Assembly (NCBI GenBank): GCA_051745285.1
Contig: JBNJDX010000005.1
Span: forward strand, 303 to 64,302
Source: Spirochaetota bacterium
Lineage (GTDB): Bacteria; Spirochaetota; Spirochaetia; CAKZLE01
Direction of reading: 5' to 3'
Length of the DNA stretch: 64,000 nucleotides
The position numbers and the translations under genes were made by a program. Below, piece after piece: positions 16,552-52,128 of this stretch; the first letter of the stretch is position 1; every line of letters begins with the position of its first letter. Below the pieces are notes generated by a model, which worked only from the letters and a program-made list of their open reading frames with translations, did no database searches and was not told the DNA's origin.

Positions 16552-16935
16552 ATGGCTACTAAGGACGAGATTCTAGATGCAATTGCGAACATGACGGTAC
16601 TTGAGGTTTCTGAACTGATTTCCGCCATGGAAGAGAAATTTGGAGTTACTGCTGCTGCACCTGTTGCAGCCGCTGCTCCGGGAGCTGCTGCTGGCGCCGA
16701 AGCCGAAGAGGTTGAGGAGCAAACAGAATTTGACGTAATCCTCAAAGGGGTTGCAGATGGTAAGAAGATTCCTGTCATCAAAGCGGTGCGGGCAATCACT
16801 GGTCTTGGTCTGAAAGAGGCTAAAGAAGTCGTTGAAGCTGGTGACAAGGCTGTCAAAGAGGGAGTATCCAAAGAGGATGCAGCTTCGATGAAGGCTAAAC
16901 TTGAGGAAGCTGGCGCCACCGTTGAGATTAAATAG
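16552..16935 (+). CDS. rplL: 50S ribosomal protein L7/L12
   Basis: 127 aa. Ala-rich hinge and conserved C-terminal domain ([22 protein letters not shown]). Confidence 0.96.
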
Positions 16936-16968
16936 TTCTTTCTATACGAGACAAACATCACGCACTGG

Positions 16969-17027
16969 CCTGCAGAGATTGGTGACAACTCTGCAGGCTC
17001 CAGCCACCGGATAATGAGTTCCGGTGG
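16969..17027 (+). promoter_or_regulatory. tandem GC-rich hairpins (attenuator-like) between rplL and rpoB
   Basis: CCTGCAGAG/CTCTGCAGG (16969-16997) and CCACCGGA/TCCGGTGG (17004-17027). No clear U-tract. Confidence 0.4.
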
Positions 17028-17191
17028 CCTGTTGTGTCATAGTAGGTAACGTGGTGCGCGGTAGTTACGCTGCGCAGGAGTTGTGTTAGGAAGAGGGCTT
17101 ACAGTGGTTGTGTCCGCTGAGACAGCCGGCAGAAACCGGTGCTCAGGGACCGACAGATAAGTCTTCCATGATTATTAACCAGGGGGTAACA

Positions 17192-23700: not shown

Positions 23701-24944
23701 TTCTCCTGGTCGCTCATCAGCAGCATCTGGACATCCGGACAGGTTCTGAGCTGCATGTTGAACTGGGCAGTGTTGTCGATGCTAACGAACCGATTGTCAC
23801 TTTCGACCCGTTCAGTGAGCCGATCATTGCTGAGCAGGATGGTAGAGTAAAATTTATTGACATCCTGCTGGGCACCACCTTGAAAGAAGAGGTGAATGAA
23901 GAGACCGGTAATATTGAAAAGAAGATTACCGAGTACACTCTGGAGACCCTGCAACCGAGAATCGTGCTGCTAGACGATGATGACAACGAGTTGGCTACCT
24001 ATCATCTGCCGGGATCCTCCTACCTCAGTGTTGAGGACGGGGCCCGCATAAAACAGGGGAAGGTGCTCGCCAAGTTGCTCAAAGAGGGCGTAAAAACCCG
24101 TGATATCACCGGTGGTCTCCCGCGTGTTGGTGAGCTGTTTGAGGCCCGCCGCCCCAAAAATACCGCGGTGCTCTCGAAGCTGGTCGGTACCGTCCGATTC
24201 AGGGACATCATCAAGGGCAAGCGCCTGATAGTTGTTGAGGACGAGTTCGGCAATGAAGCCAAACATTTTATACCGATGGGCAAGCACCTGCTTGTCCGTG
24301 ACGGGGACCCTGTCAAGGCAGGAGAGCCGTTGTGTGACGGTAATATTGATCCGCATGACATCCTGGAAATTCTAGGAGAGAACGCATTGCAGTCCTTCCT
24401 AGTTGATGAAGTCCAGGAGGTCTACCGGCTACAGGGAGTGGACATCAACGACAAGCATATTGGCGTCATTGTCCGCCAGATGATGCGGAAAATCGAGATT
24501 GCGGCTGTGGGGGATACTGGTTTTATCTACGGTCAGCAGGTTGACAAATATCGCTTCAACGAGGAGAATGAGCGGGTTATGCGCGAAGGTGGTCAGCCGG
24601 CTATTGGAAAGCCGCTGCTGCTTGGTATTACACGTGCATCTCTGAGTATTGACTCGTTTATTTCTGCAGCTTCGTTCCAGGAGACAACCAAGGTGTTGAC
24701 AAATGCTGCGATAGCTGGTAGTAGAGATGAGTTGCGGGGTCTGAAGGAAAACGTGATCATTGGTCACCTAATTCCCGCAGGTACCGGTATGAAGCGTTAT
24801 CGGAACATGAGCATTATTGATGACGATGAGGCTGCTCTCAGCTCGACGGTGCAGTCTGTTATGGAGGCTCGAAGGCGATCAGGAGAAGAGCCTGCCAAAG
24901 AACTTGAAGAGTTAATTGAAGAACTGCCCGGAGGTGAGGGATAG
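20706..24944 (+). CDS. rpoC: DNA-directed RNA polymerase subunit beta'
   Basis: 1412 aa. Zn-binding CxCGK..C..C motif and catalytic NADFDGD. Confidence 0.97.
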
Positions 24945-25077
24945 GTTCTGCTGATGCGGAACTTGAAGAGTTGCCCTCCATGCTGACTTTGGGTGATGAC
25001 ATACAGAGTATGCGCTGCTGTTTTGTACGGCAGCGCGGATGCAATGAAAAACTGTGTAAAGGGAGTGTATCGAACGG

Positions 25078-25934
<857 letters not shown>

Positions 25935-42702: not shown

Positions 42703-42755
42703 AGAGTGAACGGTTGCTGTCCTTACGGGGGCGGCAGCCGGGAAAGATAGGAAGT

Positions 42756-43553
42756 ATGACAAAACAGCATATGAAGGTCCTGTTTCTTGGCGACATCTGT
42801 GGGCGACCAGGGAGCAGGGCCGTTTTTGTGGGGCTTCGCCAGATGATTAAAACGCATGGCGCGGATTTGGTGATAGCCAATGGCGAAAATACAACCGAGG
42901 GCTTCGGTATTACCCCTGATGATGCTGATCAGCTGTTCTCAGCAGGTGTAGATGTGATCACCTCCGGTAATCACATCTGGCAGCGGGAAGAGATCCGAGC
43001 TCGTATGGATCAGGATCACCGAATTCTTCGACCGGCCAATTACCCGCCGGGAGTTCCGGGGCATGGTTCGGTTATAATCGAGCGCCACGGACTGACTGCT
43101 GCAGTGATGAACCTGCAGGGGCGTGATTTCCTGCCCTCGACAGATTGCCCCTTCCGGGTTGGCCGGGAGCTGGCGCTTCAGCTCAGAAAGCAGACGAAAC
43201 TCCTGTTTGTCGATATGCACGCAGAGTCCACTCAGGAAAAAGAGGCCATCGGACTCTATCTTGACGGGCTTGTTTCCGTGCTTGTCGGAACGCACACCCA
43301 CGTGCAGACTGCGGATGAACGAATCCTGCCCGGGGGAACAGGGTATATAACCGACCTTGGAATGACCGGTGCTGCCCTCAGTGTAATCGGCAGTTCCCCG
43401 GAACTCTCGGTCCGCCGTCAGCTGACACAGATGCCGATAAAAAGCGAGATTGCCGATGATGCTGCTATGATCAATGCACTTGTTGCTACTGTAGATAGTT
43501 CTACAGGCCGCTGTCTTGCCGTCGAACGGATCGTGAACCACTACGGAGTATAA
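42756..43553 (+). CDS. ymdB: YmdB-type metallophosphoesterase (TIGR00282 family)
   Basis: MKVLFLGDICGRPG, GENTTEGFG, DMHAE and GTHTHVQTAD motifs. Immediately follows rny, as in Firmicutes. ATG 42771 is an alternative start. Confidence 0.85.
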   Translation: MTKQHMKVLFLGDICGRPGSRAVFVGLRQMIKTHGADLVIANGENTTEGFGITPDDADQLFSAGVDVITSGNHIWQREEIRARMDQDHRILRPANYPPGVPGHGSVIIERHGLTAAVMNLQGRDFLPSTDCPFRVGRELALQLRKQTKLLFVDMHAESTQEKEAIGLYLDGLVSVLVGTHTHVQTADERILPGGTGYITDLGMTGAALSVIGSSPELSVRRQLTQMPIKSEIADDAAMINALVATVDSSTGRCLAVERIVNHYGV

Positions 43554-48132: not shown

Positions 48133-48893
48133 TGAAAAGGCAAATTGCTGCGGTTGGATTCGACATTGACGGCACCCTCTATCCAGAATGGACCATGTAC
48201 GCTTGTTCGCTGCCTGCATTTTTCCGGGACCCTCTGGTGATGTACCATTATGGCCGTATGCGAAAGACAATACGCTCGCGCCAGAACGGTAGCGAGATGC
48301 TCCTGCCAGAAAATCAACCTGAAAAGCGTCTTCGTACACTCGAGGCAGAAGTTGTGCTTGAACAGATGGGGAAAGAAGCGACGCCTGAGGCGGTTTCCAA
48401 CATCCTGCTGCGTATTGAGCAGCATCTTTATACACTCTGGCAGCGAAGTTTTTCTCGAATAAAGCCCTTTGACGGGGTGGTGGCACTATTCTCCCGTCTG
48501 CAGCAAATGGAGATACCGGTAGGGCTTCTCTCAGATTTTCCACCGGGTATTAAGCCGCGGGCCCTGGGAGTTTCGGCCATGGCTGCTGTGGTTTGCGGTT
48601 CCGAGGAGTCAGGCCGACTGAAGCCGGATGTCGCTCCGTTCAGGATGCTGGCCGACCGGCTCGGTGTTCAGGATTACTCCACATTGCTGTACGTGGGAAA
48701 CAGTTACAGTAAAGATATCATCGGGGCAAAGCAGGCCGGTATGCAGACTGCCTACTTCGTCCGCAGTCAAAGACGCGCGGCTCGTGAGAGCTTTGCAGCA
48801 AAATGCCCTAGCGCTGACTTTATCTTTAGTCGTTTCAGTGAATTGGAAGCATATATTCTTGCTGCAGAAACGTCACAGCAGGGAAGCGGCTAA
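48132..48893 (+). CDS. HAD-superfamily hydrolase
   Basis: GTG start overlapping the der stop. Motif I FDIDGTLY. Late GNSYSKD motif. Confidence 0.75.
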   Translation: MKRQIAAVGFDIDGTLYPEWTMYACSLPAFFRDPLVMYHYGRMRKTIRSRQNGSEMLLPENQPEKRLRTLEAEVVLEQMGKEATPEAVSNILLRIEQHLYTLWQRSFSRIKPFDGVVALFSRLQQMEIPVGLLSDFPPGIKPRALGVSAMAAVVCGSEESGRLKPDVAPFRMLADRLGVQDYSTLLYVGNSYSKDIIGAKQAGMQTAYFVRSQRRAARESFAAKCPSADFIFSRFSELEAYILAAETSQQGSG

Positions 48894-49624
48894 CGCGGCA
48901 GCTCAGCGCGAAATACCACGGTATCCCCTCGGATAAGGCTGCGCCGGAACTCAACGACAGATCCGCCTTCCTGTCGCGTGATACGTTCTGTTTGGAAGAT
49001 AGGGGAGTTGTTGGGTATCCCCAGCAGTCTGGATTCGTACTCATCTGATATTTGCGGCGTGAGATACTCTGTGGCCTCGGCAATCGGGATGCCGTGTCCG
49101 TTTTCCAGCAGTTTGACCAATGACTGATTATCATCAAGTTCCCCTAGTAAGTCAGGAGCCACAAAGCAGGGGACAAAAATGGTCTCCAAACTGACGGGTA
49201 AATCATCAGTCACCATTCGAAGGCGCACAATCCGATAAAACTTCTCCCTTGGCGGGAGGGCAAAGAGCGTGGCGAGATCTTCAGTTGAGTCGATCACCGT
49301 TGCCTCAATGGTCTTTGATCTGGCCGGTTTGCCTGAATCACCGACTTCAATGCCAAAACGGTAGAGGTGATCAAGTCCCTGTTCGATTTTCTTGGAGGCG
49401 ACTACTGAGCCTTTACCGCGTTCTGTCTGGATGGCACCCTCTCTTTTGAGCATTTCGAGGGCTTTCCGAACGGTCATTCGGGTGACGGAAAATTCTTCAG
49501 CAAGTTTGTATTCGGAAGGTATGGTACTCTGCTCGGCATAGATACCATTTCGGATGCGGTCAAGCAGAATATGTTTTATCTGCACATAATAGGGGATATA
49601 GCTGTGCTTGTTTAAAACCGTCAC
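48890..49624 (-). CDS. GntR-family transcriptional regulator, HutC subfamily (UTRA domain)
   Basis: wHTH (SEYKLAEEFSVTRMTVRKALEMLKREG) plus a UTRA-like effector domain. GTG start after AAGGTAGG. Confidence 0.88.
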   Translation of the reverse strand: MTVLNKHSYIPYYVQIKHILLDRIRNGIYAEQSTIPSEYKLAEEFSVTRMTVRKALEMLKREGAIQTERGKGSVVASKKIEQGLDHLYRFGIEVGDSGKPARSKTIEATVIDSTEDLATLFALPPREKFYRIVRLRMVTDDLPVSLETIFVPCFVAPDLLGELDDNQSLVKLLENGHGIPIAEATEYLTPQISDEYESRLLGIPNNSPIFQTERITRQEGGSVVEFRRSLIRGDTVVFRAELPR

Positions 49625-49644
49625 GAAAACCTACCTTTCGGTCT

Positions 49645-49674
49645 ATGGTACTAGAAGGTCCTGAGGCGTGTCAA
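49645..49674 (-). promoter_or_regulatory. candidate promoter of the gntR gene
   Basis: Minus strand: TTGACA (49674-49669), 18-nt spacer, TACCAT (49650-49645). A degenerate HutC-like box, GTCTATGG, overlaps the -10. Confidence 0.4.
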
Positions 49675-49711
49675 TAAACAGGCCGGGGCTTAAGCACTCC
49701 GACCTGTTTAT
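49674..49711 (-). terminator. intrinsic terminator after the small lipoprotein gene
   Basis: ATAAACAGG/CCTGTTTAT outer stem with a GC-rich inner pairing. On the minus strand the CAGG...CCTG core is followed by TTTATT. Confidence 0.5.
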
Positions 49712-49728
49712 GATTGACTCAGGGTTTT

Positions 49729-50064
49729 TTACATACCTGGAGCTGTACCTCCGGTGCCTCCAGCACCCCCGGCACCGCCGTCGACCGGAGCCTCTTCAGG
49801 TTGCTCAGGGACCTCGATACCTTCTTCGAGAGATGTAATTTCTTCTCGGAGCTTGGCCAACTCCTCAGCTACAGCTGACAGTTCTTCCTCGTCTTCTGCA
49901 TCAAGAGAACCGATTCTGTTTTCCAGATCGCTTACCCGTTCATTTGTACTCTGCAGGTTCTCCTTTATCTCTTCTGCTTCTTCAACTGACAGTCCTGCTG
50001 AGCAGGAGGCGAGCAGAAATATCACTGCCGCCGCTAATCCGATGATACTTGCATAACGTCTCAT
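49729..50064 (-). CDS. small acidic coiled-coil lipoprotein with Gly-rich tail
   Basis: 111 aa. Signal peptide plus lipobox (FLLAS-C). Heptad-like acidic helix. C-terminal GGAGGAGGTGGTAPG. SD AAGGAGAG 6 nt upstream. Confidence 0.75.
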   Translation of the reverse strand: MRRYASIIGLAAAVIFLLASCSAGLSVEEAEEIKENLQSTNERVSDLENRIGSLDAEDEEELSAVAEELAKLREEITSLEEGIEVPEQPEEAPVDGGAGGAGGTGGTAPGM

Positions 50065-50530
50065 AGTAGTCTCTCCTTGTACTTCGATTATTATTCAATG
50101 GCCTGAAAAGACCACCGAGCCTTCTTGCTGTCTCCCCGAAACAGCCGCTGCAGATGCGTCGGCCTATCGGGACCCTGCTGCAGCGCAGCAGGAGTTTTGT
50201 TATAGCCTCGCGGCTTAGAGCCGTGTCCGAACATTGCTTAAGCCGTTTGTGTATCGGCAGGTGCATACACACCCTGCCCCCAGTTCCATGGTCTTCAGGT
50301 TCATCCTGCCCGCACTGACCTGGTCTCAGGATGTTCCTGGTGGTCTAAGCATGCACCTCCTTCACAGCTGCAAACCTCAAAAAGATTCCCAGCAGCGTGA
50401 TACCCTGTCCCCACGCTGGGGCGGTCTGCTCGTTTAACGGCCCGTATCCTGTAAAACCCAGCACTTCTCTCTTTGCTGGTTAACGGCAGACCAGATAAAA
50501 CTGGATTACCGGCATCCAGAAGCTATTACA
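50065..50530 (-). ncRNA. unclassified structured 5' leader / candidate large ncRNA
   Basis: GC-rich stretch between the promoter at 50537-50565 and the lipoprotein ATG. Contains at least eight perfect 5-8 bp helices and one long-range 8-bp closing helix. No credible ORF and no family match by eye. Confidence 0.4.
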
Positions 50531-50536
50531 TATACT

Positions 50537-50565
50537 AGTATAGACATGTATACTAATACTGTCAA
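50537..50565 (-). promoter_or_regulatory. near-consensus sigma-70 promoter with overlapping palindromic operator
   Basis: Minus strand: TTGACA (50565-50560), 17-nt spacer, TATACT (50542-50537). GTATAGAC (50538-50545) fits the HutC-family GTnTAnAC box. AGTATA-N6-TATACT palindrome at 50537-50554. Confidence 0.6.
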
Positions 50566-50633
50566 GAGTTGTAAATAAATTTTTTCAACGGGTTCGTATA
50601 CACACCTCTTTGGCGGCTGAAAACCCGAACAGA

Positions 50634-50662
50634 TTGACAACTCATACCTTTTCAACGACAAT
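50634..50662 (+). promoter_or_regulatory. weak candidate promoter for the acidic coiled-coil protein gene
   Basis: TTGACA (50634-50639), 17-nt spacer, GACAAT (50657-50662). Confidence 0.3.
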
Positions 50663-50757
50663 AGCAACGTGGAAGCAAGCTTGAGCTAAGCATGCATTTC
50701 AGGTTGGGTGGCAGCGATTGTTGCGTACGATTTCCGTGTCTCACCAAGGTGGTTAGA

Positions 50758-52128
50758 ATGTACTATTTGGTTGATATTGTTCTCTTTCTCGTGACAATTT
50801 TAGTTATTTTTCTCTATAGGTTTATCGACAGACGGGATCGGCAGATTCATCTGGTGAAATCGTACATGGACAGACTCAAGCAGGAACTCAATAACCAGGA
50901 ACAGTCGCTGCATGCCACCTATGAGCAGCTTACAAGTGATATTGCCGGCAGAGAGAAGCACGTACGCTCGCTCCTTAGCCAGGTAGACGACTCGCTTGAG
51001 GATTTGAAGGAGCATGCCGGAGACCTCGGACAGCTTCAGTCCTATATGAGTCATTACCACCGCATACTGGAGGAGCTCTCCTCCTTGACTGAAAAAGCAG
51101 AACAGCGACTGGCGCTGCTGAAAAGCGATTTTGATTCCTTGCAGGAAGACCGGAAACAACTTGAGGAGCTTTCAAATCAGCAGCAGCAGTTGCAGGAGAC
51201 CCTGGACACATTGGGGGGGCAAATTGAGGAGTACCGCAGCAGCAGGGTTGATCTGATCGAGCAGGAAGCAGGCGAGGAACTCCAAAGGCACCTCAAACGT
51301 ATGCTTGATAAGAGCGAGACGAAGTTTTCCAATCTCTCTATGGCCTTTGAGCGCATGTATGATAATTCAGTTGAGGCGTTTCAGGCTCAGGTTGACCGGC
51401 TAGTTTCGGAAGCCCAGGAGAGCATTGAGCAGCATCTGTCGGAAGCGATTTCCAGGCAGTCGAAAAACAGCGGTTCAACAGCATCGGGATCGACAAAGCG
51501 ACCGGTCATATTTGAACAATGGGGCGGGAACGGGATCAACCGTGAGGTCTCTTCGGCTGCAGCGGTACTCTACAGTACTCAGGAAGAGCAGTCAGACAAC
51601 GAGCCCATTTCGGTAGATACCGAGTCAGAAGATGCAGCTAGTGCTGAGCTTTTTGATATGATCGACGATGATTCGGTTGATAACGACGGGGAGGGGGAGC
51701 ACACAGTCGAAAGCGTTATGCAGCATCTCGAAGAGCATGAAGAGGACGTTGAGACTGAATCAAGCACCCCTCTCGATGAGGCTGAGGAGCACGAGGAACT
51801 CCAGGACGAGCCGGATCAGGGTAAACTCGAGGAGGAGACTGTTCCGGATGAACAGGAGCCTGTGGACGACGTTTTTGATGATGATGAGTTTGACCGCATC
51901 TACTACGAGGATGAAGAAGAAATTGTTCTCGATGATACTGAAGATAATGATGATAACGACTCCGACGAAAAGCGGGAGCCAGTCGTTTCCCCGGAAAAGC
52001 GTAAGATTGTTGAAGAACACTTGAGAGAAGGCTTTTCCAGCACCGAAATTGAGGAGTTGACTGAAATTCCCAGAGGTGAAGTGGAGCTGATTCAAGAGCT
52101 TCTTGGCTTTTCCGACGAGGAAGCGTGA
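50758..52128 (+). CDS. membrane-anchored coiled-coil protein with hyper-acidic region and C-terminal HTH-like motif
   Basis: Start at ATG 50758, after AAGGTGG. One N-terminal TM helix (LVDIVLFLVTILVIFLY), a Q/E/L-rich coiled coil of about 230 aa, a D/E-dominated region, and the tail EEHLREGFSSTEIEELTEIPRGEVELIQELLG. Confidence 0.7.
   Translation: MYYLVDIVLFLVTILVIFLYRFIDRRDRQIHLVKSYMDRLKQELNNQEQSLHATYEQLTSDIAGREKHVRSLLSQVDDSLEDLKEHAGDLGQLQSYMSHYHRILEELSSLTEKAEQRLALLKSDFDSLQEDRKQLEELSNQQQQLQETLDTLGGQIEEYRSSRVDLIEQEAGEELQRHLKRMLDKSETKFSNLSMAFERMYDNSVEAFQAQVDRLVSEAQESIEQHLSEAISRQSKNSGSTASGSTKRPVIFEQWGGNGINREVSSAAAVLYSTQEEQSDNEPISVDTESEDAASAELFDMIDDDSVDNDGEGEHTVESVMQHLEEHEEDVETESSTPLDEAEEHEELQDEPDQGKLEEETVPDEQEPVDDVFDDDEFDRIYYEDEEEIVLDDTEDNDDNDSDEKREPVVSPEKRKIVEEHLREGFSSTEIEELTEIPRGEVELIQELLGFSDEEA

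Follow-up and report, generated by a model that had tools for sequence, protein, structure and literature searches.

Between a sigma-70-type promoter and the gene for a small lipoprotein, on the minus strand of a contig from a Spirochaetota bacterium, lies a stretch of 472 nucleotides (nt; positions 50065-50536) that we call the leader, a real feature of the locus that is non-coding and unusually rich in perfect hairpins. It was analysed within a window of 64,000 nt (the whole stretch of DNA considered here), for which an earlier note, made by reading the letters, had proposed a large riboswitch or non-coding RNA (ncRNA) at this place. The leader lies downstream of a conserved, operator-bearing promoter and is therefore almost certainly transcribed as a 5' leader. 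The locus, in the order of transcription, comprises the following features:

50537..50565, minus strand: sigma-70-type promoter, with -35 element TTGACA at 50565-50560, a 17-nt spacer and -10 element TATACT at 50542-50537
50065..50536, minus strand: leader (5' untranslated region, UTR), 472 nt, non-coding, 53% guanine plus cytosine (GC), G>C, hairpin-dense
49729..50064, minus strand: small lipoprotein open reading frame (ORF), 111 amino acids (aa), with signal peptide, lipobox LLASC and a Shine-Dalgarno (SD) sequence
49674..49711, minus strand: intrinsic terminator hairpin past the lipoprotein ORF, polymorphic
48890..49624, minus strand: GntR-family regulator with a UTRA effector domain (Pfam GntR and UTRA domains)

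A non-coding stretch in the slot of a DUF4168 gene

The leader is part of the 693-bp gap 50065-50757, the longest ORF-free gap in the window on a crude gene map, in keeping with the earlier description of this gap as the largest non-coding stretch; the gene on its far side, on the plus strand, begins at the ATG at 50758. All sequences, coordinates and helices quoted in the earlier note were exact on checking, including the ATG at 50064 and the terminator at 49711-49674, which gives the unit an end of its own as the note had claimed. The GC content of the leader (53%) is above the coding mean (48.8±3.2%) and exceeds that of most intergenic spacers too. The ORFs within it are all short and had been regarded as random translation, a view upheld by codon log-odds of -0.13 to -0.40 across the six frames (+0.28±0.18 for window genes), by codon usage that is nowhere coding-like in any 40-codon sub-window of the leader, and by six-frame translations with zero family matches in Pfam and NCBIfam. 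One minus-strand frame is ~150 codons long with a single stop, and the translation of the longest minus-strand open frame had zero matches among 5.8 billion proteins. A plus-strand ORF of 67 aa was considered as a gene and rejected, an exhaustive HMMER search having returned giant repeat proteins only, by summing weak stretches of 0.8-7.5 bits each (an artefact). A near-identical contig from another sample, belonging to a sister strain (L006, Logan SRR31831937) and the sole strain variant of the locus that was found, carries a 5-nt insertion within the leader, which argues against a coding frame.

The promoter scored 11 of 12 in a consensus scan, which detected zero other minus-strand promoters from 50536 to the lipoprotein ORF. 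Its spacer and -10 element hold an operator-like palindrome (TAGTATA-N6-TATACTA / GTATAC-N4-CTATAC, inverted repeat I16). Seven distinct related loci were compared with the window, and TTGAC, the TATA core of the -10 element and several operator positions are invariant across the 8 aligned loci, all of which have a GTATAG-N4-CTATAC-type palindrome between -35 and -10 plus a TAGTATA-like half-site past the -10 element (sites compared: window 50520-50575, minus strand; L001 2922-2977; L002 795-850; L003 2506-2561; L009 2392-2447; L010 103-158; L013 2115-2170; L007 2807-2862). The near-consensus promoter that had been seen to point at the lipoprotein ORF is therefore independently supported, as its relatives share it. 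Such a conserved palindrome overlapping a promoter is the usual look of an autoregulated GntR/HutC operator, and here the palindrome both overlaps the promoter and is conserved together with the regulator gene. Judging from this conserved linkage, the GntR/UTRA protein is likely a repressor acting at the operator, and the conserved operator predicts autoregulation by the linked regulator.

In five distinct relatives (L001, L002, L003, L009/L010 and L013), the promoter is followed by a DUF4168 gene, a lipoprotein orthologue and the GntR gene. The DUF4168 gene of these relatives (PF13767, above the Pfam gathering threshold) encodes 155-176 aa and lies 45-100 nt past the promoter, and the lipoprotein of the window is 40% identical (E 2e-17) to a 115-aa ORF at the same position in L001. 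The leader occupies the same genomic slot as this intact gene, with 472 nt from the -10 element to the lipoprotein ATG in the window, 573-673 nt in the DUF4168 relatives and 171 nt in L007. No DUF4168 gene is present in L007/L008, where the lipoprotein gene is preceded by a leader of only 171 nt without significant structure (folding z-score -0.84). L007 (2728-3013) and L008 are the closest loci by GntR identity (59%) and, according to the regulator tree, lost DUF4168 independently; the L007 leader was rejected as a shorter homologue of the leader studied here, being unstructured and without similarity past the promoter. A neighbour-joining tree of the regulators places L013, which has DUF4168, outside the window and the other relatives, and does not join the window to L007 as a sister; the three-gene cassette therefore appears ancestral, with DUF4168 lost twice, separately in the lineages of the window and of L007. 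The closest relative of the GntR regulator has 59% identity, with none between 59% and 100% in the protein collection and the species-representative genomes, so that this lineage is poorly sampled.

Relics of DUF4168 were sought in the leader with tblastn (best E 0.82, in a 1.3-kb database), with hmmsearch --max and a profile of the DUF4168 orthologues (leader scoring no better than 20 control pieces) and with an nhmmer DNA profile of DUF4168 (negative bit scores). The earlier note had reckoned with a decayed protein-coding gene as a finding that would speak against its proposal, and these tblastx-type searches gave no sign of one.

Hairpin density and predicted folds

Ten perfect hairpins (stem of at least 6 bp, loop of 3-30) are present in the leader, compared with 2.2±1.4 in 500 dinucleotide shuffles of its sequence (0 of 500 reach 10) and 3.1±1.6 in 134 other windows, none of which exceeds 7, which bears out the earlier observation that the stretch is packed with perfect short helices. 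Stems of at least 7 bp number 6, against 0.6-0.8 in controls, the highest single peak of a sliding hairpin count over the 64 kb falls on the leader, and the corresponding slots in relatives hold 0-6.6 perfect hairpins per 472 nt. Three pairs among the perfect hairpins overlap and are mutually exclusive. The self-complementary words CCTG/CAGG, CTGC/GCAG and GCTG/CAGC occur 12 times each where 5-6 are expected (2-2.4-fold), and AGACCA occurs 3 times where 0.1 is expected. CsrA-type GGA sites were rejected as a feature of the leader, the ~11 counted by eye equalling the ~11 expected from base composition (zero enrichment).

The predicted minimum free energy (MFE) of the full leader is -181.9 kcal/mol, with a z-score of -4.2 (-4.8 in a second run). 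This z-score was dropped as evidence after a background control, which showed it to be ordinary for the genome: 32 control window-strands of the same length had a mean z of -2.0 (standard deviation, sd, 1.7), z was -4.5 or lower in 4 of the 28 that lie clear of the leader, and a GC-regressed folding scan of 1080 windows gave the leader a place no better than within roughly the first ten. The minus strand of the leader folds with z -4.8 and the plus strand with z -2.9, and strand differences of this size are common in control windows. There is a practical warning in this for genome scans, as a strongly negative folding z-score is frequent background in the genome studied and the count of perfect local hairpins sets the leader apart far better. 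Control windows at ~16717-17188, 24879-25350 and 42703-43174 have folding z-scores of -4.6 to -4.75, as low as that of the leader; two of them, at the edges of ORFs of 1193 and 1412 aa that we take to be rpoB and rpoC, may hold real structured leaders or attenuators. The spacer 16989-17107 has a GC content of 56%.

The elements along the leader, from its 5' end to the lipoprotein start, are as follows:

50501..50519, minus strand: 5'-proximal hairpin CUGGAU-GCCGGUA-AUCCAG followed by UUUUAU, terminator-like, found by pattern scan
50423..50492, minus strand: branched hairpin closed by GGUCUGC/GCAGACC, -24.4 kcal/mol, z -1.7
50388..50420, minus strand: hairpin CAGCGUG/CACGCUG, overlapped by the alternative CCCAGC/GCUGGG
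50326..50352, minus strand: mini-ORF MLRPPGTS, 8 codons, with a Pro-Pro-Gly motif, overlapping AGACCACC
50270..50333, minus strand: imperfect direct duplication (D1), 25 nt, 76% identical, 32-nt spacing
50146..50278, minus strand: cluster of perfect 6-8-bp hairpins, domain fold z -3.75
50060..50119, minus strand: predicted helix occluding the ribosome-binding site (RBS), 12+3 bp, pairing probability ~1.0 in the ensemble

In the RBS-occluding helix, segment 50116-50105 (GGUGGUCUUUUC) is predicted to pair with 50065-50076, comprising the SD sequence GGAGAG and the spacer, and 50119-50117 with 50060-50062, comprising the G of the start codon and the following two bases; the ATG at 50064 is preceded by AAGGAGAG. 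The RBS occlusion score of the lipoprotein gene (0.75) is the third highest among 55 genes (mean 0.54, sd 0.12), and the two genes with higher scores have no visible SD sequence and starts that are perhaps mis-set. The local fold of the helix has -18.6 kcal/mol (z -1.9).

The earlier note had also drawn a long-range 8-bp helix (P1) between AGACCACC at 50346-50339 and GGTGGTCT at 50116-50109, closing a five-hairpin domain. The complementarity is exact and P1 forms when 50350-50105 is folded alone (z -3.75), but in the full leader it is disfavoured by 17 kcal/mol relative to the competing RBS-occluding helix, and it is absent from every MFE structure of growing transcripts. In these transcripts, GGUGGUCU pairs locally first, with 50122-50118 and later with AGGCCAUU. 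The same segment is predicted to be able to pair either with AGACCACC or with the SD region.

Among the remaining elements, the 5'-proximal hairpin with its U-run (50519-50493) is weak (-7.2 kcal/mol, z -0.63) and lies ~12 nt from the predicted transcription start. The branched hairpin encloses CCAGCA/UGCUGG and two copies of GCCGUUAA, and two copies of GCCGTTAA (minus-strand reading) stand at 50487-50480 and 50441-50434. The mini-ORF starts 3 nt past the strongest SD-like site of the leader, AAGGAGGU, whose duplex with the anti-SD sequence is stronger than that of the lipoprotein SD (-11.5 vs -8.3 kcal/mol), and this spacing of 3 nt is suboptimal; together, the SD-like site and a putative mini-ORF lying over AGACCACC are suggestive. 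The duplication, unscored by Tandem Repeats Finder, holds every polymorphism that distinguishes the leader in L006 (the 5-nt insertion at 50323, G>T at 50313 and A>C at 50295), and the first of the three AGACCA copies lies just upstream of it at 50346-50341. This duplication and the enriched CWG-type words suggest local sequence turnover. Within the cluster 50146-50278, GGCAGG/CCUGCC and UGUGUAU/AUACACA exclude each other, as do CCUGCUGC/GCAGCAGG and CGCUGCAG/CUGCAGCG. An H-type pseudoknot built from GGCAGG/UGUGUAU/CCUGCC/AUACACA is sterically unlikely (loops of 1, 3 and 1 nt), and the two stems were taken as alternative hairpins. The plus strand at 50174-50201 has a good terminator-like hairpin, CCTGCTGC-AGC-GCAGCAGG followed by AGTTTTGTTA, with no plus-strand gene upstream of it.

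Origin and possible role of the leader

Known RNA families were searched for with Rfam 15, which at gathering thresholds matched nothing in the leader and two tRNAs elsewhere in the window only. At E<=10 over 49600-50900, the sole match in the leader was STnc490 (14.4 bits, gathering threshold 56, E 6.1), and the best match of that search lies outside it (ar35, terminator-like, 49674-49711, 21.8 against a gathering threshold of 45); ARAGORN found 0 tRNA or tmRNA genes in the same interval. The scan proposed in the earlier note was thereby carried out and gave no confident family for the leader, in agreement with the failure, by eye, to match cobalamin, TPP, FMN, SRP, RNase P, tmRNA or 6S features. 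Two motifs that might recall such families were rejected: ACACAAACGGCUUA as the 3' strand of RNase P P4, where CGGCUUA has its partner nearby, in UAAGCCG, and the Rfam model for RNase P is negative, and the GAGACC motifs as a B12 box, where the Rfam cobalamin model is negative.

Homologues of the leader were equally absent from the sequences searched, with nhmmer finding no similarity to the seven related loci or to the rest of the 64-kb window, blastn zero homologues among plasmids and phages, and two leader 22-mers zero matches among viral contigs. Metagenomes were searched at the DNA level with one exact 20-mer only, and its two matches were rejected as glnE genes encoding LKPFVYR that share nothing further. 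An exact 22-nt identity between window 50235-50256, L017 31-52 and L018 1515-1536 (proteobacterial-type glnE, LKPFVYR) was judged to be chance. A search for relatives with the lipoprotein gave nothing at 1e-4. The leader sequence is known from one species only (the window and L006), with zero homologues to compare for covariation. An aptamer conserved across species, as expected of a riboswitch, was not seen in the 7 related loci, plasmids, phages, the one 20-mer metagenome scan or two viral scans. A large riboswitch or ncRNA, as first proposed, was not borne out: Rfam matches and homologues are lacking, and the slot of relatives holds a DUF4168 gene or a 171-nt leader. The nhmmer comparison with the homologous locus of relatives, which the earlier note had named as a check that could count against its proposal, revealed no conservation, the nearest GntR relative being just 59% identical. 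The leader is outside every described RNA family, and nothing points to ligand sensing.

The reading that we favour, and to which we give about an even chance of being right, is a lineage-specific long 5' UTR of the lipoprotein transcript that arose in the slot of a lost gene and occludes the RBS. Transcription would start at ~50530 at the conserved promoter, whose operator would most likely be the target of the GntR/UTRA regulator encoded just downstream. Ancestrally, the cassette would have had DUF4168, then the lipoprotein gene, then GntR under this promoter; in the lineage of the window DUF4168 is gone, presumably by gene loss, and its slot holds 472 nt of non-coding sequence that carries a local duplication and many perfect short inverted repeats. 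The RNA is predicted to fold into many local hairpins, its last 50 nt forming the 12+3-bp helix that would bury the SD sequence and start codon of the lipoprotein gene, and the most likely effect would be low or conditional translation of the lipoprotein. The RNA itself would probably be stable, Rho-resistant and untranslated.

Several points weigh against this reading. There is no trace of DUF4168 in protein or DNA, so that position is what speaks for an origin from DUF4168 over an unrelated replacement. If the stretch were a purely neutral remnant, one would not expect it to lead the non-coding stretches of the window in hairpin density and to be among the richest of them in GC, which is a hint of selection on RNA structure; of all the observations, only the hairpin excess sits badly with neutral readings. 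The RBS occlusion ranks third of 55 (z ~+1.8), 9 of 200 shuffles do as well as its local fold, and both transcription and its start site are read from sequence.

The leader could also have no function and be what is left of DUF4168 (a pseudogene) or of part of another gene after decay past recognition, with hairpins produced by duplication or template-switch (quasi-palindrome) mutation and an accidental pairing at the RBS; we regard this as possible but unlikely. Its position and length, similar to those of DUF4168, the independent loss of that gene in the L007 lineage, the lineage-specific sequence with its indel, substitutions and duplication, the frame of ~150 codons with a single stop and the ordinary MFE z-score are all consistent with such decay. 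It would have to be reconciled, however, with the failure of every frame to show residual similarity to the orthologues of DUF4168 or to their profile, with the lack of any protein family match, including for the longest open frame, with codon usage that is non-coding-like in all frames and 40-codon windows, and with a hairpin count that lies ~4 sd above that of other windows, coding or non-coding, and also exceeds that of the DUF4168 slots in relatives. Bacterial deletion bias is expected to shrink a useless 472-nt spacer, and would have shortened the leader as in L007.

That the leader is a new structured RNA with a regulatory role in cis, whether as a riboswitch, as a leader responsive to a protein or to temperature, or as a leader-peptide attenuator, seems to us improbable. 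Here a sensing domain at 50346-50109 would toggle GGUGGUCU between its helix with AGACCACC and the RBS-occluding helix, and translation of the mini-ORF might modulate the switch. The hairpin density, the highest in the window, the folding of the isolated domain with P1, the two possible partners of the same 8 nt, the placing of the strongest SD-like site ahead of a mini-ORF that overlaps AGACCACC and the better folding of the minus strand would all fit such a device. Yet some of these features lose weight on inspection, as chance alone would give 472 nt ~1-2 perfect long-range complements of 8 bp (estimated from ~1.1e5 position pairs / 4^8), P1 carries its energetic cost and never appears in an MFE structure of growing transcripts, strand differences of such size are common in controls and the 3-nt spacing of the mini-ORF is poor. 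Moreover, the stems are all short and perfect, the sole polymorphic region is a recent duplication, zero Rfam matches and no homologue in the collections searched leave no covariation to draw on, and the slot is taken in relatives by a protein gene or by a short leader lacking structure. A more specific form, which we likewise consider improbable, is a newly evolved, lineage-restricted regulatory RNA, in which the slot, after the loss of DUF4168, would have become a multi-hairpin sensor that moves GGUGGUCU between helices, possibly via ribosome stalling on the Pro-Pro-Gly mini-ORF.

An independent ncRNA gene (trans-acting, or an unrecognised housekeeping RNA) that uses the same promoter and ends near 50105 (GGUGGUCUUUU), with the lipoprotein gene expressed by read-through, is very unlikely. 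A U-run does follow GGUGGUCU, the 5' hairpin could stabilise the RNA and local structure is dense, but no stable local hairpin stands just ahead of the U-run and the scan finds no minus-strand terminator there; in addition, no Rfam model is positive, those of RNase P, tmRNA, SRP and 6S included, nhmmer detects no counterpart in relatives and the scan gives the lipoprotein ORF no separate promoter. We give scarcely any credence to a DNA-level or mobile element (a miniature inverted-repeat transposable element, a cluster of repetitive extragenic palindromes or a foreign fragment) inserted in or replacing the DUF4168 slot, for which many perfect inverted repeats, a GC content above that of neighbouring spacer DNA and absence from relatives might speak, but which has no second copy within the window, no framing terminal inverted repeats or target duplication and zero matches in plasmids, phages and viral contigs, the 11-nt repeat D7 spanning the conserved promoter (~0.2 expected by chance, by estimate).

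If the long 5' UTR that we favour is the correct reading, the locus is an ordinary case with some teaching value, in which a slot of a conserved, repressor-controlled three-gene cassette has turned into a long structured 5' UTR and the RBS of the downstream gene is now buried in RNA structure. The finding would carry more weight only if selection on the fold were shown, which would document a cis-regulatory RNA born from a dead gene slot.

Beyond the leader, L006 lacks 41 nt that form the terminator hairpin past the lipoprotein ORF (window 49683-49727; L006 785-800), and that strain probably transcribes the lipoprotein and GntR genes together. On the other side of the gap, the plus-strand gene 50758-52128 encodes a protein of 456 aa that has a membrane helix at its N-terminus, a coiled coil and a strongly acidic tail; it has no Pfam match above threshold, and its codon usage is atypical (-0.48). 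Its place, directly ahead of grpE (52302) and of two larger ORFs that we take to be dnaK and dnaJ, is the one usually occupied by hrcA. Two cluster-mates of this protein, P0020 and P0021, were rejected as unrelated phage-like peptides.

Comparison with known systems

Large RNAs such as OLE, GOLLD, ROOL, HEARO, raiA, RNase P, tmRNA and the cobalamin riboswitch resemble the leader in being non-coding, multi-hairpin and a few hundred nt long. The leader matches none of them even at E<=10, and they are conserved across many species, whereas the leader sequence is known from a single one. The DUF4168 gene of relatives shares its place between the conserved promoter and the lipoprotein gene and has a similar length, while the leader has no ORF, residual similarity or coding-like codon usage. 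Autoregulated GntR/HutC operons offer a parallel in the GT-rich palindrome over the promoter, kept with a GntR/UTRA gene in 8 loci; with binding putative, they would account for the promoter of the window but not for the 472-nt leader. A further parallel is found in RBS-sequestering leaders, such as the translational platforms of riboswitches and the ROSE and fourU thermometers. The leader differs from these in having no conserved sensor domain or Rfam match and an alternative helix that is 17 kcal/mol worse, and RNA thermometers are far shorter than 472 nt. As in such leaders, however, GGUGGUCUUUUC is predicted to pair with the SD sequence and start codon with a probability of ~1, and the same segment has an alternative partner upstream.

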